Assembly (NCBI GenBank): GCA_024654625.1
Contig: JANLHB010000005.1
Span: forward strand, 7,191 to 71,190
Direction: 5' to 3'
DNA: 64,000 bases
From: Patescibacteria group bacterium
Lineage (GTDB): Bacteria; Patescibacteriota; Minisyncoccia; GCA-002772825
Shown: positions 1 through 33,308 of the stretch, one piece after another
Numbering within the stretch: position 1 is the first letter of the stretch
Layout of the letters: each line of letters begins with the position of its first letter
The notes under the pieces: model-generated
What the model saw: only the letters and a program-made list of their open reading frames with translations
Told to the model about the DNA's origin: nothing
Database searches by the model: none
Position numbers and translations under genes: made by a program

Positions 1-285
1 TCATCTTTAGGCAACACTGAAGAAATTGCACTATTACAAAAATTAATACAATTTCCAAAAGAAATAATGCTAGCAGCCGAAGAATTTAATCCGTCTCGCA
101 TTACTAACCATATTTTTGAAATATCAAGAAGTTTTAATCAATTTTATAACAAACACAAAGTTATATCTGATGATGTACCCCACGAACTAACTGCTGCACG
201 TCTAAATTTTATTCATGCTACGTCCATAGTGTTAAAACAAGGGTTAAACATGATAGGTATTGATGTATTAGAGAGAATGTAATAG
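1..285 (+). CDS. argS: arginyl-tRNA synthetase, C-terminal end (gene start lies left of the window)
   Basis: Frame 1 reads through from position 1 as ...EEIALLQKLIQFPKEIMLAAEEFNPSRITNHIFEISRSFNQFYNKHKV...LNMIGIDVLERM*. This is the typical ArgS DALR anticodon-binding C-terminus, which ends ...M. Confidence 0.8.
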
Positions 286-830
286 GCGACTTCCTTAATG
301 TCTCAAGAATTGAGAGAGGGAAGATAGATTATGAATTTACCAAGTTTGACCTTGGTAAGCTCGTCGACGAACTCTTCGAAGAGTTTAGTCTTAAGATGAA
401 GGAGGAAGGGAAGACGGATCCTAAACTCTACTTTGATACCGAGGTGAAAGGAGAAGTCGTGATAAACGCCGACGAAGGGAAGATCAAGCAAGTCCTCTCC
501 AACCTGATAGATAATTCTATAAAATACACACCTGTCCACCCGAACGGGCCGTCCGGTTTCGTGAAGATTATTTTTACTTTACCTAAAGATAAAGATGTCG
601 CCCTTGTGACTATTAAAGACTCCGGCGCTGGCATGAGCCAAGAAACTATGGGGAGGCTTTTTGATAAGTTCTCTCGGGCAGACAACGCCTCTAAGTTTAA
701 CACTGCCGGTTCCGGCCTCGGCCTCTATGTGGCCAAAGAGTTTATCTCCAAGCACAACGGCCGCCTCTGGGCGGAGAGTGCCGGCGAGGGGAAGGGTAGC
801 ACATTCTTCGTGGAGTTGCCGAAGGGGTAA
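286..830 (+). pseudogene. 5'-truncated sensor histidine kinase fragment, copy 1 of 6 (end of HisKA plus a complete HATPase_c domain); it starts 3 nt after the argS stop and has no H-box
   Basis: Frame 3 translates GDFLNVSRIERGKIDYEF...IDNSIKYT...DSGAGMSQE...GSGLGLYVAKEFISKHNGRLWAESAGEGKGSTFFVELPKG*. The phospho-acceptor His region and the sensor part are absent. Confidence 0.75.
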
Positions 831-840
831 AAAATAAAAA

Positions 841-3459
841 ATGACAGAAAAATATCAAAATAAGTGGATTGATGAAATAAATGAGGCGCATAAAGCTATT
901 AGCAAAATTTGTGTAAAGACAGATGTGAGAAATTTGTCGTGGCTGAAACGTATTGCAGGGATTGATGCGGTTGGGAAATTTGAGAATCAACAAAAGACAG
1001 GCTCTTTTAAATTTAGGGGTGCTTACAATAGATTAAGACGCAATGATCATTTAAGAAATATAATAGTAGCATCAGCGGGAAATCATGGTTTAGCTATAGC
1101 TGAAGCCGCAAAGATTCTTGGATTAAATGCAACAATCTGTATTCCAACAACAGCAAGTCCTCTAAAGCGTAACAGATTAGCTGCTTACGGGTATTCAATC
1201 GTTCCAATAGGAACTCAGCTTGAGGAGTCAACGATTTATGCGAAAAATGTGGCAGAAAAAAATAATTGGGATTTTATTTCTCCATATAATGATTCTCAAA
1301 TTATACAAGGGCAAGCCAGCGTTGCTTTAGAGTTTCTAGAACAGGTCCCCGATATAGATGTCCTTATTGTTCCAGTTGGAGGGGGAGGATTAATTAGTGG
1401 GGTAGGACTCATAGCAAAACAGATAAAACCGGGGATAAAAATAATCGGAGTTGAAGCAGAATCATATTCTTCAGTAGCGTCTTCGCTTAAAGCGGGTAAA
1501 ATAAAAAAAGTAATTAATTATCCAACTTTTGCTGACGGATTGGCTGTGAATCTTGAAGACCGCAGTATCACTTTCGATATAATAAAACAAATTGCAGATG
1601 ACATAATTTTAGTGAATGAAGAAGAGATAGCCGCCGCAGTGTTGGCATTGCTTTATCATGAGAGTCAATTAGTTGAACCGTCTGGAGCTGTAGGTTTGGC
1701 GGCTGTGATAAGTGGTAAAATCAGAACTGGAGCTAAGATTGGTATTATATTTAGTGGAGGGAATATAACGACTGGGAATCTCACTAAAATAATGAATTTC
1801 CCATTTCAAGATAAAAATTTATTTGATTTTATTAATATACATGGAGAAAAAATCTTACACAAAGTTCCACTAAAGGGTATTGATTTTTCTCTTCAAGGGT
1901 ATAAACAAAGAGGATTTCTTTCAGAAAATCAAGAGCTGGATGCACGAGAAGATATTGAATATTTGACAACAAGATTTGATGAAATAAAGCAGATTGTCCA
2001 CCGTATTCAAAATAGACTGAAAGAATATTTGGATTATTGTAATGTAGAGAAATTGAATGTTGATGAATCTGCGGTGTATACAATAACAAATCTCGAAAGA
2101 AATATTACTGAACTACTTGAACAAAACAAAGTGATAAATTTAAATTCAAATTTATCACCTGTTGAGTATGGTAGGCAGGTTACATCTAAATTACAAGCAT
2201 ATAGGTCACTTCTTCACATGGTGATGGTATCTTCGATGGTGCTTGATTGGAGGTCAGCTTCATATGGTCAGAGTTGGGATACTATGTTTTTCGCTTTGGA
2301 TAGTCAGGGGAATCCGGGGGTTAATTATAATAGATACGAAAGCAATCAATTGATTTCTGTAGAAAGGCAACTAGCTGAAGTATTAGGGCTTAATCAAGAA
2401 GAAATTGGACTTTTAGTAACATCTTCCGGTATGGCGGCTTATAATATTATTGAAGCTTATCTTCAGCGACATGTTTTAAAGCCAGGTGACACTGTATTGA
2501 TTCCCCAATATATATATTTTGAAACTGATGAACAGATATCGAAATTACCAAACATAAATATTAAACGAGCTAATACTCATGATATTAATGAAATATGCAA
2601 CCTCATTAAAAAAAATAAACCCAAGGTCGTTTTTCTTGATCCATTGACAAATACTGTTGAATTGCGTTTGACAGATGTAGGGGCTGTGATTAAACATATC
2701 TCGAAAGAGAATCTTAAAAATGATATCTATTTTGTTGTTGATGGAACAATGATGTCAGGGGAAATAAATCCATTCCCCGCAAGTGGTGCAAATTCTCGCG
2801 TGAAAGTTTTATATTATGATAGTTGCAGTAAATACCTTCAGTTGGGACTTGATATTGCCATGGGTGGGCTTGTCGCCATCCCAGTTGAATTTACCGCATT
2901 ATTTGATCGATTAAGGAGAAATACCGGGACAATTATGTATGATTCAGCTAGTAATATATTTCCAACATATTCACGCGAGATACATAGCAAAAGAATGAGA
3001 AGAATGAGTAGAAATGCGATTTTAATCAGTAATGCTATTAATCGAGATAATGAACTCTCTCGGGTGGTGCGAGTTCATTATCCTAATTTGAAATCACATC
3101 CTGATTATGCGCTGGCAGAGAGGTTTAATTCTGTCGGAGGTTTAGTGACTTTTACTTTTACCGACCCTTTTCTTAATCAGCGTGATTCACTAAATAGTTT
3201 CATAGAGACCGCGTTGTCTGTTGCGAAAAAATATGGTATTTCATTGACAAAAGGTGTAAGTTTTGGATTTTCTCTCCCTAGAATATCAGCGGCAACAGCT
3301 ATGGCAGAAAATTCGCCGCCTTTCTTGAGATTGTCGGCTGGAGACAGATCTTACAATGAAACAACATTACTTGCCGACGCTCTTATCGAAGCCTTTAGAA
3401 ATTATATTCATAGTTTTGATAGCCTTAATGATTGTAATAGTGAGACTTCTTCCTCTTAG
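841..3459 (+). CDS. two-domain PLP enzyme: an N-terminal fold-type II threonine/serine dehydratase-like domain fused to a C-terminal fold-type I Cys/Met-metabolism PLP enzyme (cystathionine gamma-synthase / methionine gamma-lyase family)
   Basis: The N-terminal part has GSFKFRGA (PLP lysine), SAGNHG and VGGGGLISG. The C-terminal part has LVTSSGMAAY, VVDGTMMSG and DSCSKYLQLGLDIAMGG (the S-x-x-K PLP lysine context of the CGS family). A ~150-aa linker separates the two parts. Confidence 0.65.
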   Translation: MTEKYQNKWIDEINEAHKAISKICVKTDVRNLSWLKRIAGIDAVGKFENQQKTGSFKFRGAYNRLRRNDHLRNIIVASAGNHGLAIAEAAKILGLNATICIPTTASPLKRNRLAAYGYSIVPIGTQLEESTIYAKNVAEKNNWDFISPYNDSQIIQGQASVALEFLEQVPDIDVLIVPVGGGGLISGVGLIAKQIKPGIKIIGVEAESYSSVASSLKAGKIKKVINYPTFADGLAVNLEDRSITFDIIKQIADDIILVNEEEIAAAVLALLYHESQLVEPSGAVGLAAVISGKIRTGAKIGIIFSGGNITTGNLTKIMNFPFQDKNLFDFINIHGEKILHKVPLKGIDFSLQGYKQRGFLSENQELDAREDIEYLTTRFDEIKQIVHRIQNRLKEYLDYCNVEKLNVDESAVYTITNLERNITELLEQNKVINLNSNLSPVEYGRQVTSKLQAYRSLLHMVMVSSMVLDWRSASYGQSWDTMFFALDSQGNPGVNYNRYESNQLISVERQLAEVLGLNQEEIGLLVTSSGMAAYNIIEAYLQRHVLKPGDTVLIPQYIYFETDEQISKLPNINIKRANTHDINEICNLIKKNKPKVVFLDPLTNTVELRLTDVGAVIKHISKENLKNDIYFVVDGTMMSGEINPFPASGANSRVKVLYYDSCSKYLQLGLDIAMGGLVAIPVEFTALFDRLRRNTGTIMYDSASNIFPTYSREIHSKRMRRMSRNAILISNAINRDNELSRVVRVHYPNLKSHPDYALAERFNSVGGLVTFTFTDPFLNQRDSLNSFIETALSVAKKYGISLTKGVSFGFSLPRISAATAMAENSPPFLRLSAGDRSYNETTLLADALIEAFRNYIHSFDSLNDCNSETSSS

Positions 3460-3489
3460 GATTTTTATTGGAATTATAATTTAATATAT

Positions 3490-4035
3490 TTGTTTATGGA
3501 GAAATCAAATTTTTTTGAAAAACGTATTGAAAGAATGCATAATGCCATAGAAATGGTTCCCACCAAAATTGAAGATATTGATCTTATTGCATCTTGGGAA
3601 TCAAAAGAACCAAATATAATATCTTGGACTAAAGAAAAACATGAATCTATAATAAATAATCCGCAATTCTTACACCTTCTAATTAGTAAGAAAGGTGATA
3701 ATATTGTTCCTGTTGGGTACTCTATTTTGGAAAAGGATTCGCCGGATGAATTGTCTCTAGAGTTTATACGTCTCGTTATATGTGATGAATACAAGAATAA
3801 GGGTTATGGAGTCCTAGCTTTTGAAAATATTTGGGAATTAGCTTTTGATAAATTAAAATATTCTAGAGTTTGGCATGATGTATTTATTGAAAATGAAAAG
3901 GCTATTAATCTTTACGAGAAACTTGGTTATAAAAAATTTAAAACTAGCATTGATTTAACATCCGGTAGAGAGTTGATTTTTTACGAAATGTCTAGCGATG
4001 ATTATTTTTCTAGAGAGAAAGATAATAATTCTTAA
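3490..4035 (+). CDS. GNAT-family N-acetyltransferase
   Basis: Acetyl-CoA motif A-like RLVICDEYKNKGYG and motif B-like NEKAINLYEKLGY. The length is 181 aa. Confidence 0.65.
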   Translation: MFMEKSNFFEKRIERMHNAIEMVPTKIEDIDLIASWESKEPNIISWTKEKHESIINNPQFLHLLISKKGDNIVPVGYSILEKDSPDELSLEFIRLVICDEYKNKGYGVLAFENIWELAFDKLKYSRVWHDVFIENEKAINLYEKLGYKKFKTSIDLTSGRELIFYEMSSDDYFSREKDNNS

Positions 4036-4156
4036 GATATATATTGTGCATAATATCAATATTACGTGGGCCACATTCAATAAGTAATTGCAACTATTAA
4101 TACATAGTGTTATATTTTAATTATTATTAACAGGGCAGAAAATTAAGTAAATTTTT

Positions 4157-6712
4157 ATGGAAAAGCCACCTGATATGCCTAATATCCCCAAAAACTTAAA
4201 CGAAGCGGAAAAAAAAGTTGAAGAAAAAGAAAGATATAATCCTTTTGAAAAAGAAAAATACTGGCAAGATTTCTGGGAAAAGGAAGGTATCTATAAATTT
4301 GATCCTGAGCAACCGGGCCCTCTTTATACTGTAGATACTCCGCCACCAACAATCTCCGGGTCATTGCACCTTGGGCATATTTTTTCTTATACTCAAGCGG
4401 AGGTAATCTCGCGGTTTAAAAGAATGCAAGGGAATAATGTTCGTTATTCTTTTGGTTTTGATAATAATGGTTTGCCAACAGAAAGGTTGGTGGAAAAGGA
4501 ACTTGGGATAAGAGGCGCTAATATGGATTTAGAAGATTTCACAAAAAGCTGCCTTGATATTACGAATAAATATAAACACCTTTATGAAGATCTATGGAAA
4601 TCAATAGGTCTTAGTGTAGACTGGCGACTAGAATATTCCAGTATTTCGCCGGAAGTTCAAAAGAAATCCCAGTCCACTTTTAAGGAGTTATATGAGAGAG
4701 GGGTTATTTATAAAAAAAATGCCCCGGCTCTTTATTGCACAGAGTGTCAGACTTCATTTGCTCAAGCTGAAAAAGAAGATAAAGAAAAAGAAGCTGTTTT
4801 TTATGATTTATCATTTAAGACTGAAGATGATCAGGAATTGATCGTCGCAACAACTCGCCCTGAATTACTGCCCGCATGCAGTGCTGTTTTTGTTAATCCG
4901 GACGATATTAGATTTAAAAACTTAATCGGTAAGAAAGTTATCACTCCCTTGGGAGATGGGGTTGAAATAATGGCTGATGAGAAAGTTGAAAAAGATAAAG
5001 GCTCCGGGGCGGTGATGTGCTGCACCTATGGTGATGAAACAGATATCTATTGGACAAAAAAATATAATTTGAATGAAAAAATCATATTAAACAGATATGG
5101 AAAATTTGAAGATGTAGATGAATTGCCTGACTTGAAAGGGAGGAGAGTAAATGAAGCTAGGAAAATTATCGTTGAAAAATTAAAGTCTGACGGGTTTATA
5201 AAAAAAGAAGAACAGATCAAGCATAATGTTGATGTTCATGAGAGATGCGGTACCCTGGTGGAATTTTTACCGACTACTCAGTGGTTTATGAAAGTACTCG
5301 ATATGAAAGAACGCCTCTTGGATGCGGGAACTCAAATAAAGTGGCATCCTTCATATATGAAGACAAGGTATGAAGATTGGATTAATGGTCTAAAGTGGGA
5401 TTGGTGTATTTCAAGAGAAAGATTTTACGGAATACCAATCCCTGTATTTAGCTGCGATAATTGTGAGAACGTTTTAATCCCAGAGGAAGATCAATTCCCG
5501 ATTGACCCCAAAAAAGAGAAAAATATTCATAATTGTACTGCTTGCGGTGAAGGTAAAATGCTCCCGGAGAAAAATGTCTTGGATACATGGTTTACCTCGT
5601 CTTTATCGCCAGACATAAATAATGACAATCCATTAAATGGCGGATTGAATGGCAAGTTATATCCAATGTCGGTGAGGCCTCAAGCTCACGATATAATTAG
5701 AACATGGGCTGTGTATTCTATCTTGATGGGCTTGTATAAGCATAATGAGATTCCGTGGAGAGATTTAATGATCTCCGGACATATTTTGGTGCAGGAGGGA
5801 GAAAAGATTAGTAAGAAGACCGGTGGAGGAAAATATAAGCCGGAAGAATTAATTGCGACACATTCAGCGGATGCTGTCAGGTATGCGATGTGTGGCGCTT
5901 CGTTAGGCAGAGATTCATATTTTGACGAAAAGGAAGTGAAGAAGGGTAAAAAATTAGTCACTAAAATCTATAATGCCGGCAAGCTGGTGCTTAGTAAACT
6001 GGAAGGATTTGATCCTAAAGTAGAAATAAAAGAAGATGAGCTGGAGGCAATTGACAGGTGGATATTAGACAGATCATTTGAGACGGCAAGTAAGATGTCT
6101 GAATCTTTTGAAAATTATGAATTCAGCCAAGCGCGCCAGATTTTTGAAGACTTTTTTTGGAAAGATTTTTGTGATAATTATTTGGAGATTGTAAAAAGGA
6201 GGCTGGCAATAAAGCCGGACGATAATAAAGAGAAAATGTCAGCGCAATTCACGTCTTACAATTGTTTTCTTAGTGTTATGAAGATGGCTTCTCCTTTTAT
6301 CCCTCATATAACAGAAGAAATGTTCCACGCTCAAACAGTAAAGAAAGAAGATAATGGAGTTGTAAAAGAATCTGTTAGCTCGGAAAGTGGTGGTGGTTAT
6401 TTTTCCAATAATGAAAATATTAAAAGTATACATAGTACTCAGTGGCCATCAACATCACTTGAGTATTCTAATCATGAAAATAATGAAAATGCCAATTTAG
6501 CCTTAGATGTTATCTCAAAAATAAGAAGATTTAAGACTGATAATAAAATAAAATTTGGTACACAAATTACTTTGTTAAAAATAAGATGTCGAGAAGAACA
6601 AAAAAATAAATTAAACGGTTTTTTAGATGATATTACTTCTTTAGCAAAGGCAAATAGTGTTGAAATCGAAATAACAAGTGACGAAGAACTGATTGTAGAG
6701 ATTAGAGTTTAA
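4157..6712 (+). CDS. class Ia aminoacyl-tRNA synthetase (Leu/Ile/Val family), divergent copy with KISKK in place of the canonical KMSKS
   Basis: HIGH region SGSLHLGHIFSY...RFKRMQGNNV...GFDNNGLPTE; WDWCISRERFYGIPIP; DTWFTSS; GEKISKKTGG. The length is 851 aa. It has its own TTGCAA-17-TATATT promoter at about 4098-4126. Confidence 0.6.
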   Translation: MEKPPDMPNIPKNLNEAEKKVEEKERYNPFEKEKYWQDFWEKEGIYKFDPEQPGPLYTVDTPPPTISGSLHLGHIFSYTQAEVISRFKRMQGNNVRYSFGFDNNGLPTERLVEKELGIRGANMDLEDFTKSCLDITNKYKHLYEDLWKSIGLSVDWRLEYSSISPEVQKKSQSTFKELYERGVIYKKNAPALYCTECQTSFAQAEKEDKEKEAVFYDLSFKTEDDQELIVATTRPELLPACSAVFVNPDDIRFKNLIGKKVITPLGDGVEIMADEKVEKDKGSGAVMCCTYGDETDIYWTKKYNLNEKIILNRYGKFEDVDELPDLKGRRVNEARKIIVEKLKSDGFIKKEEQIKHNVDVHERCGTLVEFLPTTQWFMKVLDMKERLLDAGTQIKWHPSYMKTRYEDWINGLKWDWCISRERFYGIPIPVFSCDNCENVLIPEEDQFPIDPKKEKNIHNCTACGEGKMLPEKNVLDTWFTSSLSPDINNDNPLNGGLNGKLYPMSVRPQAHDIIRTWAVYSILMGLYKHNEIPWRDLMISGHILVQEGEKISKKTGGGKYKPEELIATHSADAVRYAMCGASLGRDSYFDEKEVKKGKKLVTKIYNAGKLVLSKLEGFDPKVEIKEDELEAIDRWILDRSFETASKMSESFENYEFSQARQIFEDFFWKDFCDNYLEIVKRRLAIKPDDNKEKMSAQFTSYNCFLSVMKMASPFIPHITEEMFHAQTVKKEDNGVVKESVSSESGGGYFSNNENIKSIHSTQWPSTSLEYSNHENNENANLALDVISKIRRFKTDNKIKFGTQITLLKIRCREEQKNKLNGFLDDITSLAKANSVEIEITSDEELIVEIRV

Positions 6713-6722
6713 TTTATTTAGA

Positions 6723-6978
6723 CTGCCCTCGTGACTATTAAAGACTCCGGCGCTGGCATGAGCCAAGAGACGTTGGATAAAATCTTCGAGAAATTCAACC
6801 GAGCTAAAGATGCCTCCAAGTTCAACACCGAAGGCTCCGGCCTCGGCCTCTACGTGGCTAAAGAGTTCATCGCCAAGCACAACGGCAAGTTGTGGGCGGA
6901 GTCAGCGAGCGTCCCGCCGTGGCGGGATAAAAAGGGAAAGGTAGCACATTCTTCGTGGAGTTGCCGAGGGAGTAGGGG
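6723..6978 (+). pseudogene. histidine-kinase 3' fragment, copy 2 (HATPase_c tail, frameshifted by a ~25-bp insertion that contains the palindrome cccgccgtggcggg)
   Basis: Translation: VTIKDSGAGMSQETLDKIFEKFNRAKDASKFNTEGSGLGLYVAKEFIAKHNGKLWAESA, then the insertion, then ggtagcacattcttcgtggagttgccgaggg. A 38-bp stretch is identical to copy 1. The rest diverges mainly at synonymous sites. Confidence 0.75.
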
Positions 6979-6980
6979 GG

Positions 6981-7469
6981 ATGATAAATATGTTTTATTT
7001 TATAAAAATTATAAATATTTTAAGAAAAATATATTGGTTTATATTCAGGCCTACCACAATAGGGGTCAGGCTTCTAAATATATACAATAATGAAGTTTTA
7101 CTTGTAAAACATACTTATTCTAGTAGCTGGTATTTACCCGGAGGAGGTGCTAAAAATGGAATAGATATTATAGACTCGCTTAAGAGAGAAATTAAAGAAG
7201 AACTCAATATAGATCTTAACGAAGGTCAATTGAGTAGTGCCGATCTGTTTGGAGTTTATGATAATTTCCAGGAATATAAAAACGATTATATCTTTCTGTT
7301 TATCTTAGATAATTTAAAATTAAATTTAACTAAAGCAAAAAATATTGAAATAGAAGAGGCTGGATATTTCAATATTAATAATCTCCCTGGTAGCATATCT
7401 GCCGGTACAAAAAGAAGAATAAATGAGTTTTTATCAAGAAAAGATAAAGTAATAATAAGTAAGTGGTAG
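6981..7469 (+). CDS. NUDIX hydrolase
   Basis: Nudix box LPGGGAKNGIDIIDSLKREIKEELNI. The start follows the gaggg/gggggg stretch at the end of the fragment, which can act as a Shine-Dalgarno sequence. Confidence 0.6.
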   Translation: MINMFYFIKIINILRKIYWFIFRPTTIGVRLLNIYNNEVLLVKHTYSSSWYLPGGGAKNGIDIIDSLKREIKEELNIDLNEGQLSSADLFGVYDNFQEYKNDYIFLFILDNLKLNLTKAKNIEIEEAGYFNINNLPGSISAGTKRRINEFLSRKDKVIISKW

Positions 7470-8749
7470 AGAAAGAAAATAAAATAAAGGCATTAACTCA
7501 ATACAGAGGATTTACTGTTCTTAAGTCTCTGGAGGCAGCTAGTGAAAGAATAGAAATATTAAAAGATATATTGGGAATTAGTGATAATCTAGAATTATTG
7601 AATATTGCAAAAAACGATCCAGAAAAGATACTTTCAAATCTCGGTAATTTATACGACGCCATAGGACCTCGGTCTATGGGGATCAATCCGACCCCTGTAT
7701 GTAATAGACAGTGTACTTTCTGTTCTAGTAGGCAAAGAAATAAGATAAATATAGAAGATAATATTGAAATAACGGAGGATAAATTAAGGAAAGTTTTTGA
7801 AGATTTTATAAGCATGAAAGGGGGAGGGTGTGTGCTGGTTGGTGGAGGAGAGGCATTATTAGCCTGCAAAGGCAAACTTAATGAAGTTATTAATGATTAT
7901 GATTTATATTATGGATTCAATACAAATGGTGTGAATTTGGATAAATTTACGCATGAAAAATTATTAGAAAAAACAAAATGGGTATCACTCAGTTTAATTG
8001 GACACAATAAAGATACATATAATTCTACAGCTGGATTAGATTCTTCAAGTGGTCAGTTTGATGTATTAAATGATAATCTTAAAAAATATATAGAAATAGC
8101 TGATGATTTAAATAGGGAAGGTAAAAGTCATCCCTATATATCAGCAAAAATATTGATATGTAGAGAGAATTATTTATATTCCGGAGAAATATATAATTAT
8201 GCAAAATATTTAGGATTCAAAGATATTTCCCTGAGATGCGTAAACAATTTTGAAATAGAAGAAGAATATAGAAAGAGAAAAATTATTCCTCAAGATATAG
8301 AGCTAACTAAGAAGGAGAAAGAGCAGATAAAAAGTATATTAACCAAAGAAACCGATTTATCAGAAGAGATAATATTTAATATATTGGGTTTACGGGATAA
8401 AATTAAAAATGATACGGTGGTTATAAACCCTACGCTATGTTGGAATGTAGTATTAGGTTTAATAATAAATTTAGATACAAACGGAGAAGTTTTTCTATGT
8501 AACCCAAGGATAGGAATGGAAAGTTTTAGTATTGGAAACATTAATTCAATGAGTCTAAAAAGTCTTTGGAGTGGTTCTATCCATGTTGATGTTGTTAAAA
8601 AAACTTATAAAACATTTAATAAGGGCGCTTGTGACTTAAGTAAATGTCGACACTTTCGTGTAGATCAAGTTATAGAGCAGTTTTTAGAAGGAAAGATATC
8701 ATTAAAAGATAGAAGTTTCGGTGATAAGCAAATGAGTTTTTTCCCTTAG
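7463..8749 (+). CDS. radical SAM protein with a C-terminal SPASM/twitch-like Cys-rich domain and a ~75-aa N-terminal extension
   Basis: CNRQCTFC (CxxxCxxC). C-terminal motifs: NLDTNGEVFLCNP and GACDLSKCRHF. Confidence 0.6.
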   Translation: MVEKENKIKALTQYRGFTVLKSLEAASERIEILKDILGISDNLELLNIAKNDPEKILSNLGNLYDAIGPRSMGINPTPVCNRQCTFCSSRQRNKINIEDNIEITEDKLRKVFEDFISMKGGGCVLVGGGEALLACKGKLNEVINDYDLYYGFNTNGVNLDKFTHEKLLEKTKWVSLSLIGHNKDTYNSTAGLDSSSGQFDVLNDNLKKYIEIADDLNREGKSHPYISAKILICRENYLYSGEIYNYAKYLGFKDISLRCVNNFEIEEEYRKRKIIPQDIELTKKEKEQIKSILTKETDLSEEIIFNILGLRDKIKNDTVVINPTLCWNVVLGLIINLDTNGEVFLCNPRIGMESFSIGNINSMSLKSLWSGSIHVDVVKKTYKTFNKGACDLSKCRHFRVDQVIEQFLEGKISLKDRSFGDKQMSFFP

Positions 8750-8753
8750 AGTT

Positions 8754-8988
8754 TTTTGGAGAAATTCAACCGCGCAGACAACGCCTCCAAGTTCAATACT
8801 GCCGGTTCCGGCCTCGGCCTCTATGTGGCTAAAGCCCCAACACTATCGCTTATCGCGAAAGTGAGGGGTAAAAATTCATCGCCAAGCACAACGGCAAGTT
8901 GTGGGCGGAGTCTGCCGGCGAGGGCAAAGGTAGCACATTCTTCGTGGAGTTGCCGTTAATCTCGACTGGTGTTGAGAAGAAGGGGTAA
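8754..8988 (+). pseudogene. histidine-kinase 3' fragment, copy 3 (disrupted by two short insertions)
   Basis: EKFNRADNASKFNTAGSGLGLYVAK [~40-bp insertion] FIAKHNGKLWAESAGEGKGSTFFVELP [~24-bp insertion] aaggggtaa. Confidence 0.75.
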
Positions 8989-9001
8989 AATGAGGTATAA
9001 T
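8972..9001 (+). promoter_or_regulatory. sigma70-like promoter TTGAGA-18-TATAAT, 7 nt upstream of the ATG at 9009 (leaderless-type arrangement)
   Basis: ttgaga at 8972-8977, which lies inside the second insertion of copy 3. tataat at 8996-9001, followed by ctctata and the ATG. Confidence 0.4.
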
Positions 9002-9008
9002 CTCTATA

Positions 9009-9893
9009 ATGAAATTTGAATTTAGAATCTCAAAATGGGCGAATTTTTATTATTTTGTCCAGAATCTCTCAGAATGGCATTTTAGTAATCGTAAAGATTA
9101 TAATATTTTTTGGAGAGAAAAGCTCAAATCTTTCTCAAAAGATGAGGAATCTGTATTAGAAAAATTTAAAGAGATTAGATTTAAATACCCTAAGACAAAA
9201 AGTTGTTTTGAAAGGGCTTTTTTTCTGTCAGAAAGCCCTTTTGAAGAATTGAATAAATGTTTATCTGAAAGAGAATATTTAACAATGAAGGAAATTTTTA
9301 ATGTTTTAGAGGATAAGTTTGATGCTCTGTATAAAGAAGATGAAGTTCTTCTTAAAAAATGGAAAGATGCATTGAGTGAAGAATCTAATGATAAAAACCT
9401 TATAATAAAAATATTGTCTATATTAAAAATCTTATACAAAAGCAATATTGATACACAAGAAGTTTCTGTCACTCTTTTATTTTCTACTCCTGAGCACATA
9501 GGAGGTGGTGCCAATATAGACCGCAATATGATTAGTCTAGAAGTTTCCCGTTACCCGATAGAAAATATAAATCAAGCCATAGGTATTATTTGGCATGAAA
9601 TAATACATTTGATGTTTCAAGAACGGTATTTTTCATTATTATTGGATTATTTTAAGGAAGATGAGCAGGTAGCTGACCTTGTTAATGAGTTAACCGCTGG
9701 ATCATTATTTCCAAATGGAATTTTAGGTATACGAATATTAAAGAATAAACCATCTACTCAATTATTGCCACAAGTTACCAAAGGGCAAACTATTATGATT
9801 ATTAATTTGGCAAAGGAGTATGTTGAAAAAGGCAGTCAACTGGACAGGAATTTTATCAATAGGTTGATAGATATTATTAAGGAGAAGAATTAA
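9009..9893 (+). CDS. hypothetical protein with an HExxH motif; putative zinc metallopeptidase
   Basis: WHEIIHLMF. There is no other recognisable domain. A convergent terminator hairpin at 9905-9938 follows it. Confidence 0.35.
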   Translation: MKFEFRISKWANFYYFVQNLSEWHFSNRKDYNIFWREKLKSFSKDEESVLEKFKEIRFKYPKTKSCFERAFFLSESPFEELNKCLSEREYLTMKEIFNVLEDKFDALYKEDEVLLKKWKDALSEESNDKNLIIKILSILKILYKSNIDTQEVSVTLLFSTPEHIGGGANIDRNMISLEVSRYPIENINQAIGIIWHEIIHLMFQERYFSLLLDYFKEDEQVADLVNELTAGSLFPNGILGIRILKNKPSTQLLPQVTKGQTIMIINLAKEYVEKGSQLDRNFINRLIDIIKEKN

Positions 9894-9944
9894 AAAAATG
9901 TCCGTCTGAGAAAATAAATTCTCAAACGGACATTTTGGAGGGGG

Positions 9945-10127
9945 TTAACCGCTTATGTCTCCCCACCCTGGGTCGCCGCCGCCGAGGTCGTCCCAATTAC
10001 CCCATTGGTCATCCCAGCCCTTAACGTCTTGTGCTTCTTGCTCTCGACATTCGCGCGGTGTGGCGTTTATGTCGAGGAGACTCCTTGTCCTTTCAGAAGC
10101 TCCCTTGATTGCGTTTGAGCCTGTCAT
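9945..10127 (-). CDS. 60-aa Trp/Asp/Gly-rich small protein translationally coupled to the upstream radical SAM-SPASM gene; candidate RiPP precursor peptide
   Basis: MTGSNAIKGASERTRSLLDINATPRECREQEAQDVKGWDDQWGNWDDLGGGDPGWGDISG. On the minus strand a strong SD, gaaaggagataaaaATG, overlaps the last codons of the radical SAM gene. The region is a local GC-rich patch. Confidence 0.45.
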   Translation of the reverse strand: MTGSNAIKGASERTRSLLDINATPRECREQEAQDVKGWDDQWGNWDDLGGGDPGWGDISG

Positions 10128-10129
10128 TT

Positions 10130-11266
10130 TTATCTCCTTTCTATCCGCGGGGGCGGATGGTTTATTTTCCTCACCTTATCTTCAAGGTAAGTAAAAATTT
10201 CTTTTCTAGTCTCGCAGTAGTAGTATTTTCCTTTTACACCTCCTTTCCTATGCATTGTGCAACCGTTATGACAAGCTTTTTCCCATTTGCACATAATGCA
10301 ATCCTGATGCAGATCGTTCACACCTTTTGCATAATTCATTCTTTCTGATCCATTTAGTATATCTAAGAGCGAAGATCTCGAGATATCACCTAATAGGAAA
10401 TTAGGTTGACCTGATGACCTGTCGCATGGGTAAATTCTCCCATCGTATTCAAGACAGAAATATCCCGAGCATGAGCCGTTAAATGAACATCCAGAACTCT
10501 TTTTCCCGAAGATGACCGCGATAAAGTTTTCAATCTCGCGAAGAGCAAGATTAGGATCGTCTTTATCGAGCCAAAGATTGATCTGTTCTTTGAGAAATCT
10601 CGTCAGTTGCTTGTTTGTCAGACCATGGCTATTTGATTTTAAGCCATTTTGTTCCAGGTCAAGATATACGTTCGTGCCCCACTTCTTGATGCCAAGCTCA
10701 TCCGCAAAAAAATGAAAATTTTCTTTTGTGGATGAAAGACTGGAGGATGTAATAGTCTGAATAAATCCCGGTTTTATGCCGTGCTTACGGATGATCTCTA
10801 GCCCTCTCATTACTGAAGAAAATGTCCCTTTGTCGTTGTTGTTTTTTCTGAATCGGTCATGGCTTTCTTTGTTACCATCTAAGCTAATGCCCACTCGAAA
10901 CTGGTATTTTTTGAAGAGCTCAGCCCACTCGTCGTTGATAAGAGTAGCATTGGTCTGTATAAAGTTTTGAACTTTTTGACCGTTTCTGGTGTTAGACGAT
11001 TGAATACGGACGGCTTCTTCGAAGAAGGGGATACCTGCAAGCAATGGTTCTCCACCGTGCCAGATGAAAGAAAGATTTTCGTTAAAGAGAAGTATGTATT
11101 CGCTTAAAAACTTCTCTAACAGTTCAAAATCCATGATACTGTGAGTAGACTGATCTTTGTCGTTATAGAAGCAGTAGCCACAGCGAAGGTTGCAGTAATC
11201 TCCCGCTGGTTTTATGATTGGGACCATCGTTTTAAGTGGGGAAGTAAGTAACACCCGGTTTTTCAT
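10130..11266 (-). CDS. radical SAM enzyme with a SPASM domain (anSME / RiPP-maturase type)
   Basis: CNLRCGYC near the N-terminus. SPASM motifs: CSGYFCLEYDGRIYPCD and CIMCKWEKACHNGC. A strong SD, aaggaggataaaATG. Confidence 0.75.
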   Translation of the reverse strand: MKNRVLLTSPLKTMVPIIKPAGDYCNLRCGYCFYNDKDQSTHSIMDFELLEKFLSEYILLFNENLSFIWHGGEPLLAGIPFFEEAVRIQSSNTRNGQKVQNFIQTNATLINDEWAELFKKYQFRVGISLDGNKESHDRFRKNNNDKGTFSSVMRGLEIIRKHGIKPGFIQTITSSSLSSTKENFHFFADELGIKKWGTNVYLDLEQNGLKSNSHGLTNKQLTRFLKEQINLWLDKDDPNLALREIENFIAVIFGKKSSGCSFNGSCSGYFCLEYDGRIYPCDRSSGQPNFLLGDISRSSLLDILNGSERMNYAKGVNDLHQDCIMCKWEKACHNGCTMHRKGGVKGKYYYCETRKEIFTYLEDKVRKINHPPPRIERR

Positions 11267-11320
11267 TTTATCCTCCTTGCGTTGTATAGATAAAGGTTAT
11301 TTTTATTTTTTAAAGATCAT

Positions 11321-11350
11321 TTGACAAAGTACAGTTCTAATATGTATAAT
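11321..11350 (+). promoter_or_regulatory. sigma70-like promoter TTGACA-18-TATAAT that reads into HK-fragment copy 4 and the MntA/HepT pair
   Basis: ttgaca at 11321-11326 and tataat at 11345-11350. It lies in a divergent intergenic region shared with the minus-strand radical SAM gene. Confidence 0.5.
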
Positions 11351-11433
11351 GCATATATTATGATTGAAAGTCAACATCAACAAGTTGTAAGCGCCCTAGT
11401 TGTTTTTAATAAGAAATTGCTTCTTTTATAAAA

Positions 11434-11610
11434 GCAAAATCTTCGAGAAGTTCAACCGCACTAAAGACGCCTCCAAGTTCAACACCGAAGGCTCCGGCCT
11501 CGGCCTCTATGTGGCTAAAGAGTTCATCAATAAGCACAACGGCCGCCTCTGGGCGGAAAGCCCGGGGGAGGGCAAAGGGAGTACATTCTTCGTGGAATTG
11601 CCGAGGGGGG
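11434..11610 (+). pseudogene. histidine-kinase 3' fragment, copy 4
   Basis: IFEKFNRTKDASKFNTEGSGLGLYVAKEFINKHNGRLWAESPGEGKGSTFFVELPRG. Its end, ccgaggggggtggtagtATG, supplies an SD for the next gene. Confidence 0.75.
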
Positions 11611-11617
11611 TGGTAGT

Positions 11618-12088
11618 ATGGCGTTAGGAGGTATTTCCTGGTATAATGTTTCTATGAATTTATCCAGAGAGCAGAAAATTAAATTAGCTGATTTTGCCGA
11701 AGCAAATGGTATAAAGTTTATAGTTTTGTTCGGCTCGCAGTCTAGAAAAACTTCTAAAAAAGATAGTGATTTTGATATTGCTGTATTAACAACGCCGGAG
11801 AAGAGCATTTTTGAGAGTTTGGAAAATTATAATAATCTTTTGTTTGGCCTATCTGCTATCTTAGAAATACCGGATTATAAGTTTGATCTAACTGATCTGA
11901 ACAATGCTAATATATTGTTGAGATATGAGATTGTTTCGAGCGGGCAGTTATTGTTTGGAGATGAGATCGATTATCTTGAATTTAAATCTTTTGCGACTAG
12001 GGAGTATATTGACGCTAAGAGATTGTTTGATCTTGAAGATTTTTTAATCAAGAAAAAGCAACGATTACTTTCAGAAGTAGTTCTTTAA
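11618..12088 (+). CDS. nucleotidyltransferase, MntA-type antitoxin
   Basis: LFGSQSRKTSKKDSDFDIAVL (GS...D-x-D). It is paired with the downstream HEPN gene. Confidence 0.65.
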   Translation: MALGGISWYNVSMNLSREQKIKLADFAEANGIKFIVLFGSQSRKTSKKDSDFDIAVLTTPEKSIFESLENYNNLLFGLSAILEIPDYKFDLTDLNNANILLRYEIVSSGQLLFGDEIDYLEFKSFATREYIDAKRLFDLEDFLIKKKQRLLSEVVL

Positions 12089-12093
12089 TTACT

Positions 12094-12561
12094 ATGATAA
12101 AAGAAGATTTTGTAAAAAGGAAAATATCATTGATCCAAGATGAACTCAGTAATCTTGAGCGTCTTTCGCATTATTCTTTTGATGAGATAGCAAGCGACCC
12201 CATAAAGCAGGGAGCATTGGAACGCTTTCTTGAAAGGGTTATTAATAGAGCAATAGATATCAATAATCATATTATCGCAGAGCTTGCAGGTCTTGATACT
12301 GCTACGCCGAAGGATTACACAGATAGTTTCTTGGAGTTGGCGAAGTTGGGTATCTATACTAAAGAGTTTGCGGAAAGTATTTCTAAAAGTGCTGGAACGA
12401 GAAATGTGCTTGTGCATGAATATGATAAAATTGACCAGACTAGGATTTATAATTCAGTCGCGGATTGCTTGCGTGATTATCATAAATATTGCGGATACAT
12501 TTTAGAGTTTCTTGAAAAACAACCAAAGGAGAAATACAACCAAAGGAGAAATAATTTGTGA
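12094..12561 (+). CDS. HepT/DUF86 HEPN-domain toxin
   Basis: R-x4-HEY motif RNVLVHEYD. Confidence 0.65.
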   Translation: MIKEDFVKRKISLIQDELSNLERLSHYSFDEIASDPIKQGALERFLERVINRAIDINNHIIAELAGLDTATPKDYTDSFLELAKLGIYTKEFAESISKSAGTRNVLVHEYDKIDQTRIYNSVADCLRDYHKYCGYILEFLEKQPKEKYNQRRNNL

Positions 12562-12576
12562 GGAGCTTGCTGGTGT

Positions 12577-12668
12577 CACGCCGTGGCGGGATAAAAAGAG
12601 GAAGGCTCGCCCGGATGAACCCGTTCGGACGGGGTAGCACATTCTTCGTGGAGTTGCCGAGGGGGTAG
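12577..12668 (+). pseudogene. histidine-kinase 3' fragment, copy 5 (only the last ~35 nt of the CDS plus the same cgccgtggcgggataaaaag element as copy 2 and a second small hairpin)
   Basis: cacgccgtggcgggataaaaag...cccgttcggacgggg tagcacattcttcgtggagttgccgagggggtag. Confidence 0.7.
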
Positions 12669-12677
12669 GGGATAGTT

Positions 12678-13085
12678 TTACTTTTTGATGAGATGATAAA
12701 TTTCCTTGATATATTCTTTTAGATTGTTATAGCTCAATACCGAAGATACCTCATTTGTCGGTACCCATTTAATGTCATCCCCTTTAAATTCCGGCCTTAA
12801 GAGGGTGTCGTCCTCAGATTGCACTAGAAACATTTTTATTGAAATATTATTTCCATTTGGATGTGTGTAATTTATGTCCGGTAAATCGCATAAAATTTCT
12901 ACTAATAGCCCTGTCTCCTCTTTAACTTCTCTAATCATTGCGTTAGTCGGATCCTCACCATCCTCAATGTGTCCCTTGGGAAAGGACCAATCTTTTTGTT
13001 TCCCACTATAAAGCAGGGCAATTTTACTTTGATCATCCTTACTCAAAATAATAGCGCCGGCTTTCTGGATTAATTTAATAGTCAT
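12678..13085 (-). CDS. NUDIX hydrolase
   Basis: Nudix box GHIEDGEDPTNAMIREVKEETGL. Confidence 0.7.
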   Translation of the reverse strand: MTIKLIQKAGAIILSKDDQSKIALLYSGKQKDWSFPKGHIEDGEDPTNAMIREVKEETGLLVEILCDLPDINYTHPNGNNISIKMFLVQSEDDTLLRPEFKGDDIKWVPTNEVSSVLSYNNLKEYIKEIYHLIKK

Positions 13086-13135
13086 AGTTAGTATTACACT
13101 ATATCACTTATATACCTTTTAGGTTGCAGGTACCC

Positions 13136-13831
13136 CTATTGGGTGATTTTTTTTGCAATTAAAATTAGCCTTGGACTGGTCAAAGAATATTCACTAAAAT
13201 CATAGTTGCCGATAACACGCTCAACAGAAAAACCGGATTTTTCCATCCATTGACTCCAAACAGGATAAGGTGGGTATGGAATTCTAAGATTAGCTTTTTT
13301 ATCGATAAGCTCTAATTTTTTCGCATCAAATGCAAATGGCGAGTTAGGATTTTTCTCAAGGTAAGAAACGATCCTAAATAAATTATCCGTATCAATCAGA
13401 ATTTTGCCTCCGGGTTTAATGTTGCGACCTATTGAAGAGACTGCCTTTTCAATGTTGATGTTGGCTAAGTCGGAGAAAAACCAGTATGCCTTGTCATATT
13501 TCTTTCTTAACTTTAGTTGTTCAATATTGGCTTTATAATAATTCGGCGTTCTTTTGCCGGATTTTTTAGATTCATCTTTTGCTTTACTAAGTAGGTATTT
13601 AGAAAAATCAACACCGTCTACTAAATAACCTCTTTCACTTAGGGCTTTTGTGTGGCGACCTTGCCCGCAAGCAATATCAAAGATGGTATCATTTTTTTTA
13701 AGACTAAGAGCTTTAATTAAAAAGTCAGAATCTTTCTTTATACTTGCTGAAGTTAGAAATGAATCATGATCCTTTAAATAATCACCCTTTTCTCCGTAGT
13801 ATTTAGATAAAAATTCTTTAGATTTTGACAT
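13136..13831 (-). CDS. class I SAM-dependent methyltransferase
   Basis: Motif I IFDIACGQGRHT. The length is 231 aa. Confidence 0.65.
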   Translation of the reverse strand: MSKSKEFLSKYYGEKGDYLKDHDSFLTSASIKKDSDFLIKALSLKKNDTIFDIACGQGRHTKALSERGYLVDGVDFSKYLLSKAKDESKKSGKRTPNYYKANIEQLKLRKKYDKAYWFFSDLANINIEKAVSSIGRNIKPGGKILIDTDNLFRIVSYLEKNPNSPFAFDAKKLELIDKKANLRIPYPPYPVWSQWMEKSGFSVERVIGNYDFSEYSLTSPRLILIAKKITQ

Positions 13832-13904
13832 GGTGTATTCTTATATGTATTAATATACTGGATAATATATCAAATAGAAGGTAAAGATGATAGTATGTAT
13901 AATG

Positions 13905-13938
13905 TGACCCATTCTTCGTGGAGTTGTCGTAGGGGAGA
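13905..13938 (+). repeat. histidine-kinase 3' fragment, copy 6 (shortest remnant: tgacccattcttcgtggagttgtcgtagggg)
   Basis: It matches the terminal ~30 nt of the other copies. It is preceded by tatgtataatg, the same -10 context that lies upstream of copy 4. Confidence 0.65.
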
Positions 13939-13977
13939 GAGTAGATTTGATAATAGTTTTTATGGTATAATGTTCTT

Positions 13978-14268
13978 ATGGAAAAAGACGTTATTATTAA
14001 AAAATTGGATAAAAGCCTGTCGGTTTTGAAAGAGAAATACAATGTGAGAAGCATTGGTGTTTTCGGTTCGTATGTAAGAAATGAGGCAAAGGCAGGGAGT
14101 GATTTGGATATTTTAGTCACATTTGAAAAGCCGATAGGATTGTTAAAATTTATAGAACTGGAAAATTATCTCTCAGAATTGACAGGAATAAAAGTTGATT
14201 TGGTATCTCAGAAAGCGCTTAAGCCCAGGATAGGAAAGCAGATATTGGAAGAAGTGGTGAATGTCTGA
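13978..14268 (+). CDS. nucleotidyltransferase, MntA-type antitoxin (second copy, a divergent paralog)
   Basis: VFGSYVRNEAKAGSDLDILV. Confidence 0.65.
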   Translation: MEKDVIIKKLDKSLSVLKEKYNVRSIGVFGSYVRNEAKAGSDLDILVTFEKPIGLLKFIELENYLSELTGIKVDLVSQKALKPRIGKQILEEVVNV

Positions 14269-14623
14269 TCTTATGAAAAGAGATTATCTGGATTATCTTC
14301 AAGATATTATTGACTCAATAAATGACATTGAGAGTTTTGTTGGTGGGATGAATTTTAATTCGTTTGAAAAAGATAAAAAAACTATGAATGCGGTTGTAAG
14401 GAGCTTAGAGATAATCGGCGAAGCTGTTAAGAAAATACCGGAAGATGTGAAGGATAAGTACTCAGATATTCCATGGAAGAATATGTCGGGCATGAGAGAT
14501 AAACTAATCCATGAATACTTTGGCATTGATGAAGAGATTGTTTGGAATGTTGCAATAGAAGAATTGCCTCCTCTTGGGTCATTGTTTAAAAAAATTTTAA
14601 CAGAATCGGGGACGGAGGAATAA
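14261..14623 (+). CDS. HepT/DUF86 HEPN toxin (second copy)
   Basis: RDKLIHEYFGID. Confidence 0.65.
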   Translation: MSDLMKRDYLDYLQDIIDSINDIESFVGGMNFNSFEKDKKTMNAVVRSLEIIGEAVKKIPEDVKDKYSDIPWKNMSGMRDKLIHEYFGIDEEIVWNVAIEELPPLGSLFKKILTESGTEE

Positions 14624-14627
14624 GGCC

Positions 14628-15377: not shown

Positions 15378-15383
15378 TTATTA

Positions 15384-15671
15384 ATGACCAAAAAATTTCA
15401 GCGGAATATTGAGGACTTCGTGTGCGGGCATTGCGGGGCGAGAGTCAGGGGCAACGGCTACACTAACCATTGCCCCAAGTGCCTGTGGAGCAAGCATGTG
15501 GATGTGAACCCGGGCGACAGGGGAGCGGACTGCGGAGGGATGATGAAGCCCGTTTCTGCCGAGCAGAAGAGTGGAGAGTGGCGGATCCTCCATAAGTGTG
15601 AGAAATGCGGACATGAGAAGATAAACAGGCTATCAAAAGATGACGACTTTGATAAAGTGACGAAGATGTAA
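15384..15671 (+). CDS. RNHCP-domain zinc-ribbon protein
   Basis: CGHCG...TNHCPKC...CEKCGH. The gene is GC-rich compared with its flanks. Confidence 0.45.
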   Translation: MTKKFQRNIEDFVCGHCGARVRGNGYTNHCPKCLWSKHVDVNPGDRGADCGGMMKPVSAEQKSGEWRILHKCEKCGHEKINRLSKDDDFDKVTKM

Positions 15672-17596: not shown

Positions 17597-17610
17597 TAAA
17601 TAAGATAAAA

Positions 17611-33302: not shown

Positions 33303-33308
33303 TTTATA

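Follow-up and report, generated by a model that had tools for sequence, protein, structure and literature searches.

Among the described systems, Rhs C-terminal displacement comes closest to the locus reported here. In the model proposed for Rhs loci, copies of the core recombine by homology and release circles, which a further homologous crossover inserts at the intact gene, so that older modules are pushed downstream (Jackson et al. 2009, PMC2935791); the same paper also reports a GC contrast and partial cores that vary in length. Our locus lies in a stretch of 64,000 nucleotides (nt) from a Patescibacteria group bacterium (GenBank assembly GCA_024654625.1, contig JANLHB010000005.1, positions 7,191 to 71,190), hereafter the window. 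An earlier reading made from the letters of the window (the sequence-only reading) had noticed six co-oriented 3'-end fragments of a histidine-kinase gene, each in front of a different set of cargo genes. We interpret them as a chromosomal accretion array on the 3' end of a conserved seven-transmembrane (7TM) sensor histidine-kinase gene, driven by homologous recombination, and place the probability of this interpretation at about one half.

Like the orphan modules of Rhs, MafB and CdiA, the array consists of an intact gene followed by co-oriented, 5'-truncated fragments of variable length; in both cases the conserved part is GC-rich and the variable DNA AT-rich, the modules differ by strain and no dedicated recombinase seems to be involved. 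However, Rhs fragments run in frame into a new toxin tip and an immunity gene and thereby diversify the protein, whereas here the kinase is not diversified, the fragments end at its stop codon, whole unrelated genes such as valS and argS vary, and the host belongs to the Patescibacteria. Because of the second and the third of these features the array stands outside the Rhs/Maf/contact-dependent inhibition (CDI) family, although by analogy it would work like one of its displacement arrays. The layout, which had been regarded as not a standard described architecture, thus has a described analogue in these arrays; of kinase-tail arrays in Patescibacteria, no description was found in the literature searched.

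Tandem elements at the 3' ends of genes offer a second comparison. Integrative and conjugative elements and cis-mobilizable elements (ICE/CIME) accrete at the 3' end of fda in Streptococcus thermophilus. The tycheposons of Prochlorococcus are tandem integrative elements at tRNA genes, and many of them carry tyrosine recombinases (10.1101/2020.12.28.424599). In these systems as in ours, the target is intact at one end, partial target copies separate the insertions, newer elements push older ones inward, degenerate remnants persist and cargo-only units occur; target-derived direct repeats flank the elements here, and a relative (contig L043, described below) has the corresponding empty site. The known elements nevertheless use tyrosine recombinases and a fixed attachment (att) core, while no integrase was found in the arrays examined here, their repeat boundaries vary on both sides and crossovers fall inside the repeat. 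Chromosomal integrons resemble the locus in their co-oriented repeats, small cassettes and similar cargo (toxin-antitoxin, GNAT and NUDIX genes), and in that the repeats of one genome resemble each other more than those of other genomes. They differ in that here neither IntI nor attI nor Pc was found, the kinase gene heads the array, and the repeat is coding-derived, hairpin-free and of very unequal length, with some cassettes inverted and under their own promoters. Modules of the Xer-exploiting integrative mobile elements (IMEX) and of the plasmid-borne dif (pdif) type borrow the host XerC/D, and dif-type sites are 28-bp imperfect palindromes near the replication terminus. Like our array, they consist of tandem modules that lack an integrase and collect at a single place in the chromosome, with copies of a short site on either side; in contrast, the core described below has neither dyad symmetry nor fold and lies ~30 kb from the GC-skew turning point of the window.

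Scanning metagenome contigs for this core recovered several related contigs from Joint Genome Institute (JGI) sample Ga0210057; the related contig L001 came from a European Nucleotide Archive (ENA) assembly. Positions in the kinase are given as HK nt, the coordinates of the intact orthologous gene of contig L024 (1626 nt, 541 aa). The 20-nt core CATTCTTCGTGGAGTTGCCG occurs six times in the window, always on the plus strand (802, 6947, 8936, 11584, 12640 and 13910), each time with at most one mismatch, while none is expected from 100 dinucleotide-preserving shuffles. Repeat detection and alignment show that every core is the end of a 5'-truncated HATPase_c tail of the kinase, so that core matches, repeat families and alignment all confirm six co-oriented truncated 3' ends between unrelated modules.

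The first copy, c1 (285-830, plus strand as all others), covers HK nt 1084-1626 and thus the full HATPase_c domain without the H-box, with a GC content of 0.48 versus ~0.35 in the cargo. Copy c2 (6723-6978) runs from HK nt ~1391-1396 to the stop and has a loop insertion and a first stretch of ~45 nt that has been converted to the c1 type. From HK nt ~1450-1456 onward, c3 (8750-9005) retains a tail with an altered stop region, followed by ~40 nt of the native promoter region downstream of the kinase, common to L024 and L001, with a promoter-like site at 8972-9001 (11/12 consensus matches). A 39-nt insertion in c3 at ~8838-8875, CCCCAACACTATCGCTTATCGCGAAAGTGAGGGGTAAAA, has CCCC...GGGG ends and disrupts the kinase frame. 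Copy c4 (11434-11610) extends from HK nt 1450 to the end, c5 (12557-12668) contains a composite loop insertion related to those of c2 and of copy D in the related array G821, and c6 (13901-13938) is a minimal tail-core remnant with one mismatch in the 20-nt core. Measured against L024, the retained kinase lengths from c1 to c6 are 543, 231-236, 171, 177, ~66 and ~34-38 nt. The fall in length, first described as monotonic, therefore stands as a gradient (at most one inversion among six, P = 6/720 = 0.008) but not as strict monotony, since c3 and c4 tie; the 235 bp originally given for c3 included the insertion and the ~40 nt of native downstream DNA.

Alignment of the six copies mapped their breakpoints, and both boundaries proved variable. 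Across arrays, the left boundaries fall at HK nt 883, 1084, ~1391-1396, ~1450-1456, ~1510-1514, ~1565 and ~1590, and repeat length ranges from 34 to 744 nt. On the right, repeats end at the stop codon, at +40 nt (c3, L024/HK780) or at +90 nt (G821 copies A, B and C), and the segment downstream of the kinase moves together with the tail, not with the next cargo. Every kinase fragment terminates at the kinase's own stop codon, the cargo being separate genes; c1 and c5 keep an open frame to the stop. The description of the fragments as starting just after a cargo stop codon does not hold for c6, which follows a gene on the minus strand, ~70 nt beyond its 5' end. Microhomology of the kind left by deletions, GAGAGAATG(G)TAATA, is present at the argS/c1 junction; as a general junction rule it was rejected, since only this junction has it and the others match at 2-6 of 24 positions. 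In c1, c2, c4 and G821 copy D the next start codon comes 2-20 nt past the kinase stop, and the purine-rich tail end GAGGGGGTAGGGG could be a ribosome-binding site for the next gene, which may bear on the survival of the extreme 3' end in every copy. A role of the tail as promoter or terminator was rejected, as predicted sites are no more numerous than in shuffled sequence and none is common to the tails; sequence resembling real promoters was confined to two places, the segment that follows c3 and the site at 11321.

The 5' part of the kinase gene, considered missing by the sequence-only reading, lies on another contig owing to an assembly break in the repeat. A search with the intact orthologue in the metagenome-assembled genome (MAG) found P0129 (MCR4343029, locus tag NUV40_03985), a partial protein of 475 aa, on a 2,451-bp contig, that comprises the 7TM sensor, HisKA and the beginning of the ATPase domain. 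The 32 residues at its C-terminal end, IKYTPVHPNGPSGFVKIIFTLPKDKNVALVTI, recur without change as the first 32 of c0 (P0003, MCR4342295), a partial 103-aa kinase tail with 96% identity to c1, which reads KDKD there. The MAG therefore has an intact kinase of ~546 aa, broken by the assembler inside the repeat. The open reading frame (ORF) of c1 is identical to MCR4342301, and c0 precedes it by six accession numbers on the same contig; to judge from this order, c0 would be a seventh tail copy, upstream of the window at the contig start and five genes from c1, with argS as the last of them. The count of six consequently holds for the window only. As far as this overlap can tell, the array hangs directly behind the intact kinase P0129 + c0.

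The kinase is native to this locus, as a conserved neighbour of an ABC/aaRS/ScpAB backbone (aaRS, aminoacyl-tRNA synthetase). In five contigs of more distant Patescibacteria (L035, L036, L038, L040 and L041), the orthologous kinase adjoins this backbone or lies a few genes upstream of it, and its neighbours are tRNA-synt_1b, ABC transporter, class II aaRS, ScpA, ScpB, S11 peptidase, MraY, FtsW and MurG genes. The window carries the same backbone from 15.7 kb onward (15712-20918, plus strand: ABC transporter, class II aaRS, ScpA and ScpB; then S11 peptidase, MraY, FtsW and MurG). None of the five loci contains extra tail copies; L038 and L041 were rejected as array candidates, the two kinases of the former being unrelated paralogues and the latter simply being cut by the contig end. 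The gene directly upstream of the intact kinase (L024 1-741; L043 4703-5449) encodes an Autoind_synth/FeeM-like homologue of N-acyl-amino-acid or acyl-homoserine-lactone synthases, which may be the signal partner of the kinase.

Comparison with related genomes shows that both the presence of cassettes and their neighbours are polymorphic. The array G821rc, the reverse complement of contigs L018 + L023 at the end of a 49.9-kb contig, has four tail copies. Its modules are a C39 peptidase/arginase-family/ThiF block, a MntA/HepT pair, a cassette with an HExxH protein and a radical SAM (S-adenosylmethionine) enzyme, and a second MntA/HepT pair that is a 99.7% identical copy; a glycosyltransferase cluster and then the RNHCP/ABC backbone lie distal to them. 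Cassette 3 of the window is 78% identical to G821rc 4639-7026 at the nucleotide level (67% and 80% for the proteins), and the window from the RNHCP gene onward is syntenic with G821rc from 16342 onward. A block of valS and c2 is 89% identical to L001 7736-10612 (2.9 kb), with the valS stop/kinase junction at the same point, yet its neighbours on both sides differ between the window and L001. In L043, from a second strain of sample Ga0210057, the kinase is 85% identical to that of L024, and ~85 nt past its stop begins DNA that is 85% identical to G821rc 15486-15653. In G821 this DNA sits just before the backbone, more than 15 kb into the contig, so L043 represents an empty site. Stepwise accretion at the kinase 3' end, as envisaged by the sequence-only reading, is thus supported by an intact kinase at the head of the array (P0129 + P0003; L024), by the empty site and by the differing cassette content.

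Contig L037, from Hainich groundwater, has the same layout built from its own tail, although its kinase is only 49% identical at the amino acid level. Its tail copies measure 573, 144 (95% identical to its own kinase) and ~25 nt, and its cargo includes NUDIX, methyltransferase and MntA/HepT genes; this MntA and HepT are 74% and 69% identical to the G821 pair, far closer than the kinases are. Right after the HepT stop, at ~7345-7370, we noticed a degenerate core remnant, CTCGTGGAGTTACATAG, with which L037 may hold four tail copies, not three. Three further observations concern G821. A 93-nt inverted repeat (G821rc 155-247 and 3498-3590, 92% identity) brackets the C39 peptidase/arginase-family/ThiF block and may reflect an inversion or a separate insertion within the array; after copy A comes a stem-loop whose 12-bp stem is perfect (AGCCATCTACTT...AAGTAGATGGCT); and at the distal array edge (~15320-15360) the AT-rich DNA is interrupted by a GC-rich stretch with the tRNA T-loop-like GGTTCGAGTC, where ARAGORN finds no tRNA.

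In two assemblies, one unit of two cassettes closes on itself. The first 141 nt of L001 (MEGAHIT, k = 141) are identical to its last 141 nt, and L029, from a JGI assembly, is a circular permutation of L001 that crosses its end junction. The unit X - HK780 - Y(valS) - HK235, in which HK780 and HK235 are tail copies, is accordingly either circular, with 10,471 bp, or duplicated in tandem. The opening 125 nt of G821rc match the HK235 tail exactly, private single-nucleotide polymorphisms included, and the chromosome probably runs from the intact kinase through Y and HK235 into the G821 array, the X branch being another possible route.

The tail copies have diverged to about 60-85% identity, and hence do not result from a simple recent duplication. 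Between c4 and L024, synonymous and non-synonymous differences number 13:5, and L024, HK780 and HK235 compared with each other give 5:0, 5:0 and 4:0. As differences among these closer alleles are mostly synonymous, the closer copies come from functional alleles and not from long decay in place; differences between c1 and c4 or the L024 group, in contrast, are not enriched in synonymous ones (16:20 to 20:16). The copies are moreover mosaics. Among c1-c4, two sequence blocks (R1/R2) are combined in each of the four possible ways; c2 is 89% c1-like over its first 55 nt, but 62% c1-like and 91% L024-like over the next 55 nt. HK235, the orthologue of c2, matches its own genome's intact kinase at 100% over 110 nt, so that in both genomes this copy has undergone conversion to the resident type. 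Between L024 and HK780 there are 24 differences over ~680 nt and none in the last 157 nt, and a 970-bp duplication in G821 terminates inside a tail copy. Exact runs shared pairwise among c1-c5 measure 26-41 nt, except for c4/c5 with 14 nt; identity over 26-41 nt is sufficient for RecA-type recombination.

The composition of the repeats departs from that of their surroundings. The fragments in the window have 48-62% GC versus 29-37% in the cargo. Along the L024 kinase, the GC content of third codon positions (GC3) rises from 0.03-0.27 in the first 630 nt to 0.50-0.77 in the other 1,000 nt, and the gene upstream has 24% GC. In four relatives without arrays the kinase GC3, 0.23-0.31, equals their background; it is 0.45-0.58 in L037 and intermediate in L043. 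We tentatively attribute this GC3-rich 3' kilobase, found in AT-rich genomes, to a recombination hotspot with GC-biased gene conversion; selection on the DNA or a foreign origin of the tail are alternatives.

Homologous recombination would account for these observations as follows. A DNA circle would carry a 3'-end piece of the kinase together with cargo genes; we infer this intermediate, which could arise in another cell when two tail copies recombine, or else through an illegitimate join. The circle would enter by natural transformation, a plausible route given that natural competence has been shown in Saccharibacteria (PMC10633639). A single homologous crossover would then join it to the resident kinase tail, leaving the kinase intact with the cargo directly behind it and the circle's truncated tail copy at the distal end of the cargo. 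Further rounds would displace older modules from the kinase, while useless tail copies would be whittled down with age; insertion next to the intact gene and erosion of older copies would explain why the longest copy is proximal and a ~35-nt stub distal. The tail copies could recombine with each other and with the intact gene, giving gene conversion, duplication, excision and cassette shuffling. If recombination is homologous, integrases are not needed, and that none was found near any array is the reason why we consider growth by ordinary homologous recombination probable.

Several observations weigh against this interpretation. Two joints, between copies B and D of G821 and between copies 1 and 2 of L037, lie at HK nt ~1585-1595, where the terminal ~35-nt core has its left edge, and a third (L024/HK780) is compatible with the same place. 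The minimal remnants, c6 and the third L037 copy, equal exactly this core, as would be expected of an att site; at 34 nt, c6 is also too short to be a good substrate for homologous recombination. Within a genome the core is more uniform than the sequence upstream of it, and across distant lineages its synonymous sites are unchanged in 8 of 10 codons, versus 3 of 9 in the G2 box. Left boundaries cluster at 1450 and 1456 in the window and at 1510 and 1514 in G821. Closure of L001/L029 fits a circle and a tandem duplication alike, and the first circle with a kinase fragment has no explained origin, microhomology being present only at argS/c1.

The uniformity and the joints of the core form the strength of the main rival, in which the terminal ~35 nt of the kinase gene (GGTAGCACATTCTTCGTGGAGTTGCCGAGGGGGTAG) are the attachment site of a recombinase encoded elsewhere in the genome, on the model of Xer for IMEX or of ICE/CIME accretion, and the longer kinase fragments are passengers. 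We find such a mechanism possible but doubt it. Further in its favour, the 20-nt core has only 2 mismatches over the 120 nt of the six window copies, each genome has one core type (TTC..GAG in the window, TTT..GAA in the Ga0210057 contigs), the second L037 copy combines a resident-like left part with a window-type-like core, and the MntA/HepT pairs of L037 and G821 are related despite kinases of ~49% identity. Against this, no recombinase was found in the sequence searched, the core lacks dyad symmetry and a significant fold, and the right boundary of the repeat varies, with the downstream segment moving along with the tail. Other crossovers lie far from the core (the c2 switch at ~nt 45; the R1/R2 block mosaic), the G2-box block is conserved equally well within the clade, and the joints coincide with a loop indel or a collapse of similarity, where homologous tracts would end too. 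Site-specific integration, the first analogue proposed in the sequence-only reading, is thus not demonstrated, in view of repeats of 34 to 744 nt with different left boundaries, variable right boundaries and crossovers inside the repeats.

The recombinase search bears directly on this choice. It covered the ~14 kb array with 50 kb of flank and ~40 kb of related loci, and thus only part of each genome, so that an enzyme could be encoded elsewhere, which counts against homologous recombination as well. Within the array cargo, the scanned window ORFs of at least 90 aa, G821rc and the L001 ORFs, no tyrosine, serine or DDE recombinase was found apart from an IS30-family transposase, and none is among the precomputed Pfam hits of L037. 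This transposase (48692-49687, minus strand; NCBIfam transpos_IS30, 264 bits; Pfam HTH_38) lies ~35 kb from the array. A recombinase hidden among unannotated cargo was considered and rejected, the hypothetical proteins of L001 having no Pfam, NCBIfam or PHROG recombinase match. Nor is the core a recognizable structure or a motif of another kind: it has no dyad symmetry and matches no Rfam family or tRNA, the only tRNA in the window being tRNA-Ala at 61181 and the related loci having none. An attC-like or other DNA structure was rejected after single-stranded folding of both strands of the copies (z from -1.42 to +1.09), a phage or plasmid origin because the core has no match in viral contigs and PHROGs gave nothing relevant, and a genome-wide motif such as an uptake sequence or a Chi-like site because within the 64 kb the core occurs only in the six copies. 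In GTDB representative genomes it has only single chance matches in unrelated taxa.

A bolder conclusion, speculative and in our view unlikely, is that Patescibacteria possess a cassette-capture platform, integron-like but built differently. A ~35-nt site in the last kinase codons would be used by a trans-acting recombinase, or by a specialised homologous recombination coupled to constitutive DNA uptake, and would give these ultra-small, integrase-poor genomes one of their chief means of acquiring genes, accessory and even essential ones, of reshuffling them and of exchanging them between lineages.

We consider it improbable that the locus is a static relic, an ordinary variable region in which the kinase stretch was segmentally duplicated long ago and then lost 5' parts and genes, so that the fragments would be decaying pseudogene stubs with no present mobility. 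The essential valS and argS inside the array, the visible decay of c3 and c6, the deletion-type microhomology at argS/c1 and a one-off kinase-tail fusion elsewhere (L042) would fit such a history. However, cassette content differs among related genomes and the empty-site strain comes from the same sample, one cassette is duplicated at 99.7% identity, one unit closes on itself, and conversion to the resident allele is recent. The closer alleles differ mostly at synonymous sites and in frame, and MntA/HepT cargo is common to arrays of distant lineages. The sequence-only reading had held that identical copies would point to segmental duplication, and the same fragments in the same order in related genomes to a fixed rearrangement; the copies are not identical, and the related genomes do not have the same fragments in the same order.

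Very improbable, too, is an integron-like platform, the second analogue put forward at first, in which the kinase repeat takes the place of attC and an IntI-type integrase captures promoterless cassettes. Co-oriented repeats do separate small modules, the toxin-antitoxin, GNAT, NUDIX and methyltransferase cargo is typical of chromosomal integrons, and several cassettes begin 2-10 nt past the repeat. But neither IntI nor another tyrosine recombinase was found in the sequence searched, the repeats have no attC-like hairpin on either strand (z -1.4 to +1.1) and range from 34 to 744 nt, two cassettes are inverted, some have strong promoters of their own, and cassettes reach 5.9 kb, three genes and essential genes. 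Finally, that the assembler threaded strain variants through the common repeat is scarcely credible: contigs do break in the repeat (c0 at a contig start, the partial P0129, and L043, L044 and L024, which all end just past the kinase), yet every junction at which a cargo end meets the inside of the kinase has a sequence of its own that the reads must have contained, the copies are not alike, the valS/tail junction recurs at 89% identity in two different environments, and in L037 another kinase underlies the same layout.

The genomes of Patescibacteria (the candidate phyla radiation) are tiny, and little is understood of how new genes enter them. Here, a recurrent hotspot lies behind one conserved gene, with no integrase in the sequence examined, and its modules, which differ between co-occurring strains, comprise defence and toxin-antitoxin, RiPP-like (ribosomally synthesized and post-translationally modified peptide), nucleotide-metabolism and even aaRS genes. 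If recombination at the kinase tail drives the array, Rhs-type displacement would extend from toxin diversification to general gene acquisition, and gene gain would be tied to natural competence. The kinase may also be a natural case of GC-biased gene conversion acting within one gene, and its tail could be a homology anchor for DNA insertion in genetically tractable relatives. For work with MAGs there is a caution, since the kinase-tail repeat breaks assemblies and hides the intact kinase.

The cargo was assigned by Pfam and NCBIfam profile matches, under which its description as functionally unrelated sets holds. The window opens with the 3' end of argS (1-282, plus strand), the last gene of the first cassette, between c0 and c1, identified by its DALR anticodon-binding domain (Pfam DALR_1, 1e-24). 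Cassette 1 (841-6712, plus strand) encodes a PALP/pyridoxal-phosphate (PLP) fusion (841-3459), a GNAT acetyltransferase (3490-4035) and a class I aaRS (4157-6712) that NCBIfam identifies as valS (915 bits versus a cutoff of 738). The fusion, of 872 aa, joins a threonine/serine-dehydratase-like PALP domain to a Cys/Met-metabolism PLP enzyme, an unusual protein with two PLP domains beside GNAT and valS genes. In cassette 2 (6981-8749, plus strand) a NUDIX hydrolase (6981-7469) is followed by a radical SAM-SPASM enzyme (7463-8749), both by Pfam.

Cassette 3 (9009-11431) is of mixed orientation, with an HExxH protein (9009-9893, plus), a radical SAM-SPASM enzyme (10130-11266, minus) and a small ORF (11360-11431, plus). 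The HExxH protein has 294 aa and the motif HEIIH; it belongs to no Pfam family and has no Pfam, NCBIfam or PHROG recombinase match. The small ORF encodes 23 aa, MIESQHQQVVSALVVFNKKLLLL, behind a promoter at 11321-11350 with the perfect sigma-70 consensus TTGACA-18-TATAAT, and a terminator-like hairpin of 18 pairs (9895-9936, minus strand) lies inside this RiPP-like module. Cassette 4 (11618-12561, plus strand) is a toxin-antitoxin pair of a MntA-like nucleotidyltransferase and HepT. The inverted cassette 5 (12678-13831, minus strand) has a NUDIX hydrolase (12678-13085) and a SAM methyltransferase (13136-13831). The distal cargo (13978-15671, plus strand) consists of a second MntA/HepT pair (13978-14623), an alpha/beta hydrolase (14628-15377) and an RNHCP protein (15384-15671).

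A few features beyond the array are worth recording. Between the S11 peptidase and MraY genes, which belong to a conserved cluster for the cell wall, lies an ORF of 326 aa without a Pfam match (21978-22958, plus strand), in a kilobase of local GC 0.52 versus ~0.38, and between MraY and FtsW an Amidohydro_3 gene (24157-25725). On L042, a contig of another member of the Patescibacteria, an amidohydrolase N-terminal part after MraY is fused in frame to a kinase tail and followed by MazE (2696-3589); this looks like a one-off insertion of a kinase tail at a different site, and the tail is not GC-rich. The protein encoded at 28193-28771 (plus strand) combines a PaaX central Cas2-like domain with a weak match to CRISPR_Cas2, and a PD-(D/E)XK/Cas4-like nuclease is encoded at 32127-33302; no CRISPR array was noticed. 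Over ~33000-45000 the cumulative GC skew climbs to a maximum near 44-45 kb, after which it declines, and gene orientation switches as well; this maximum, ~30 kb from the array, may be the replication terminus.

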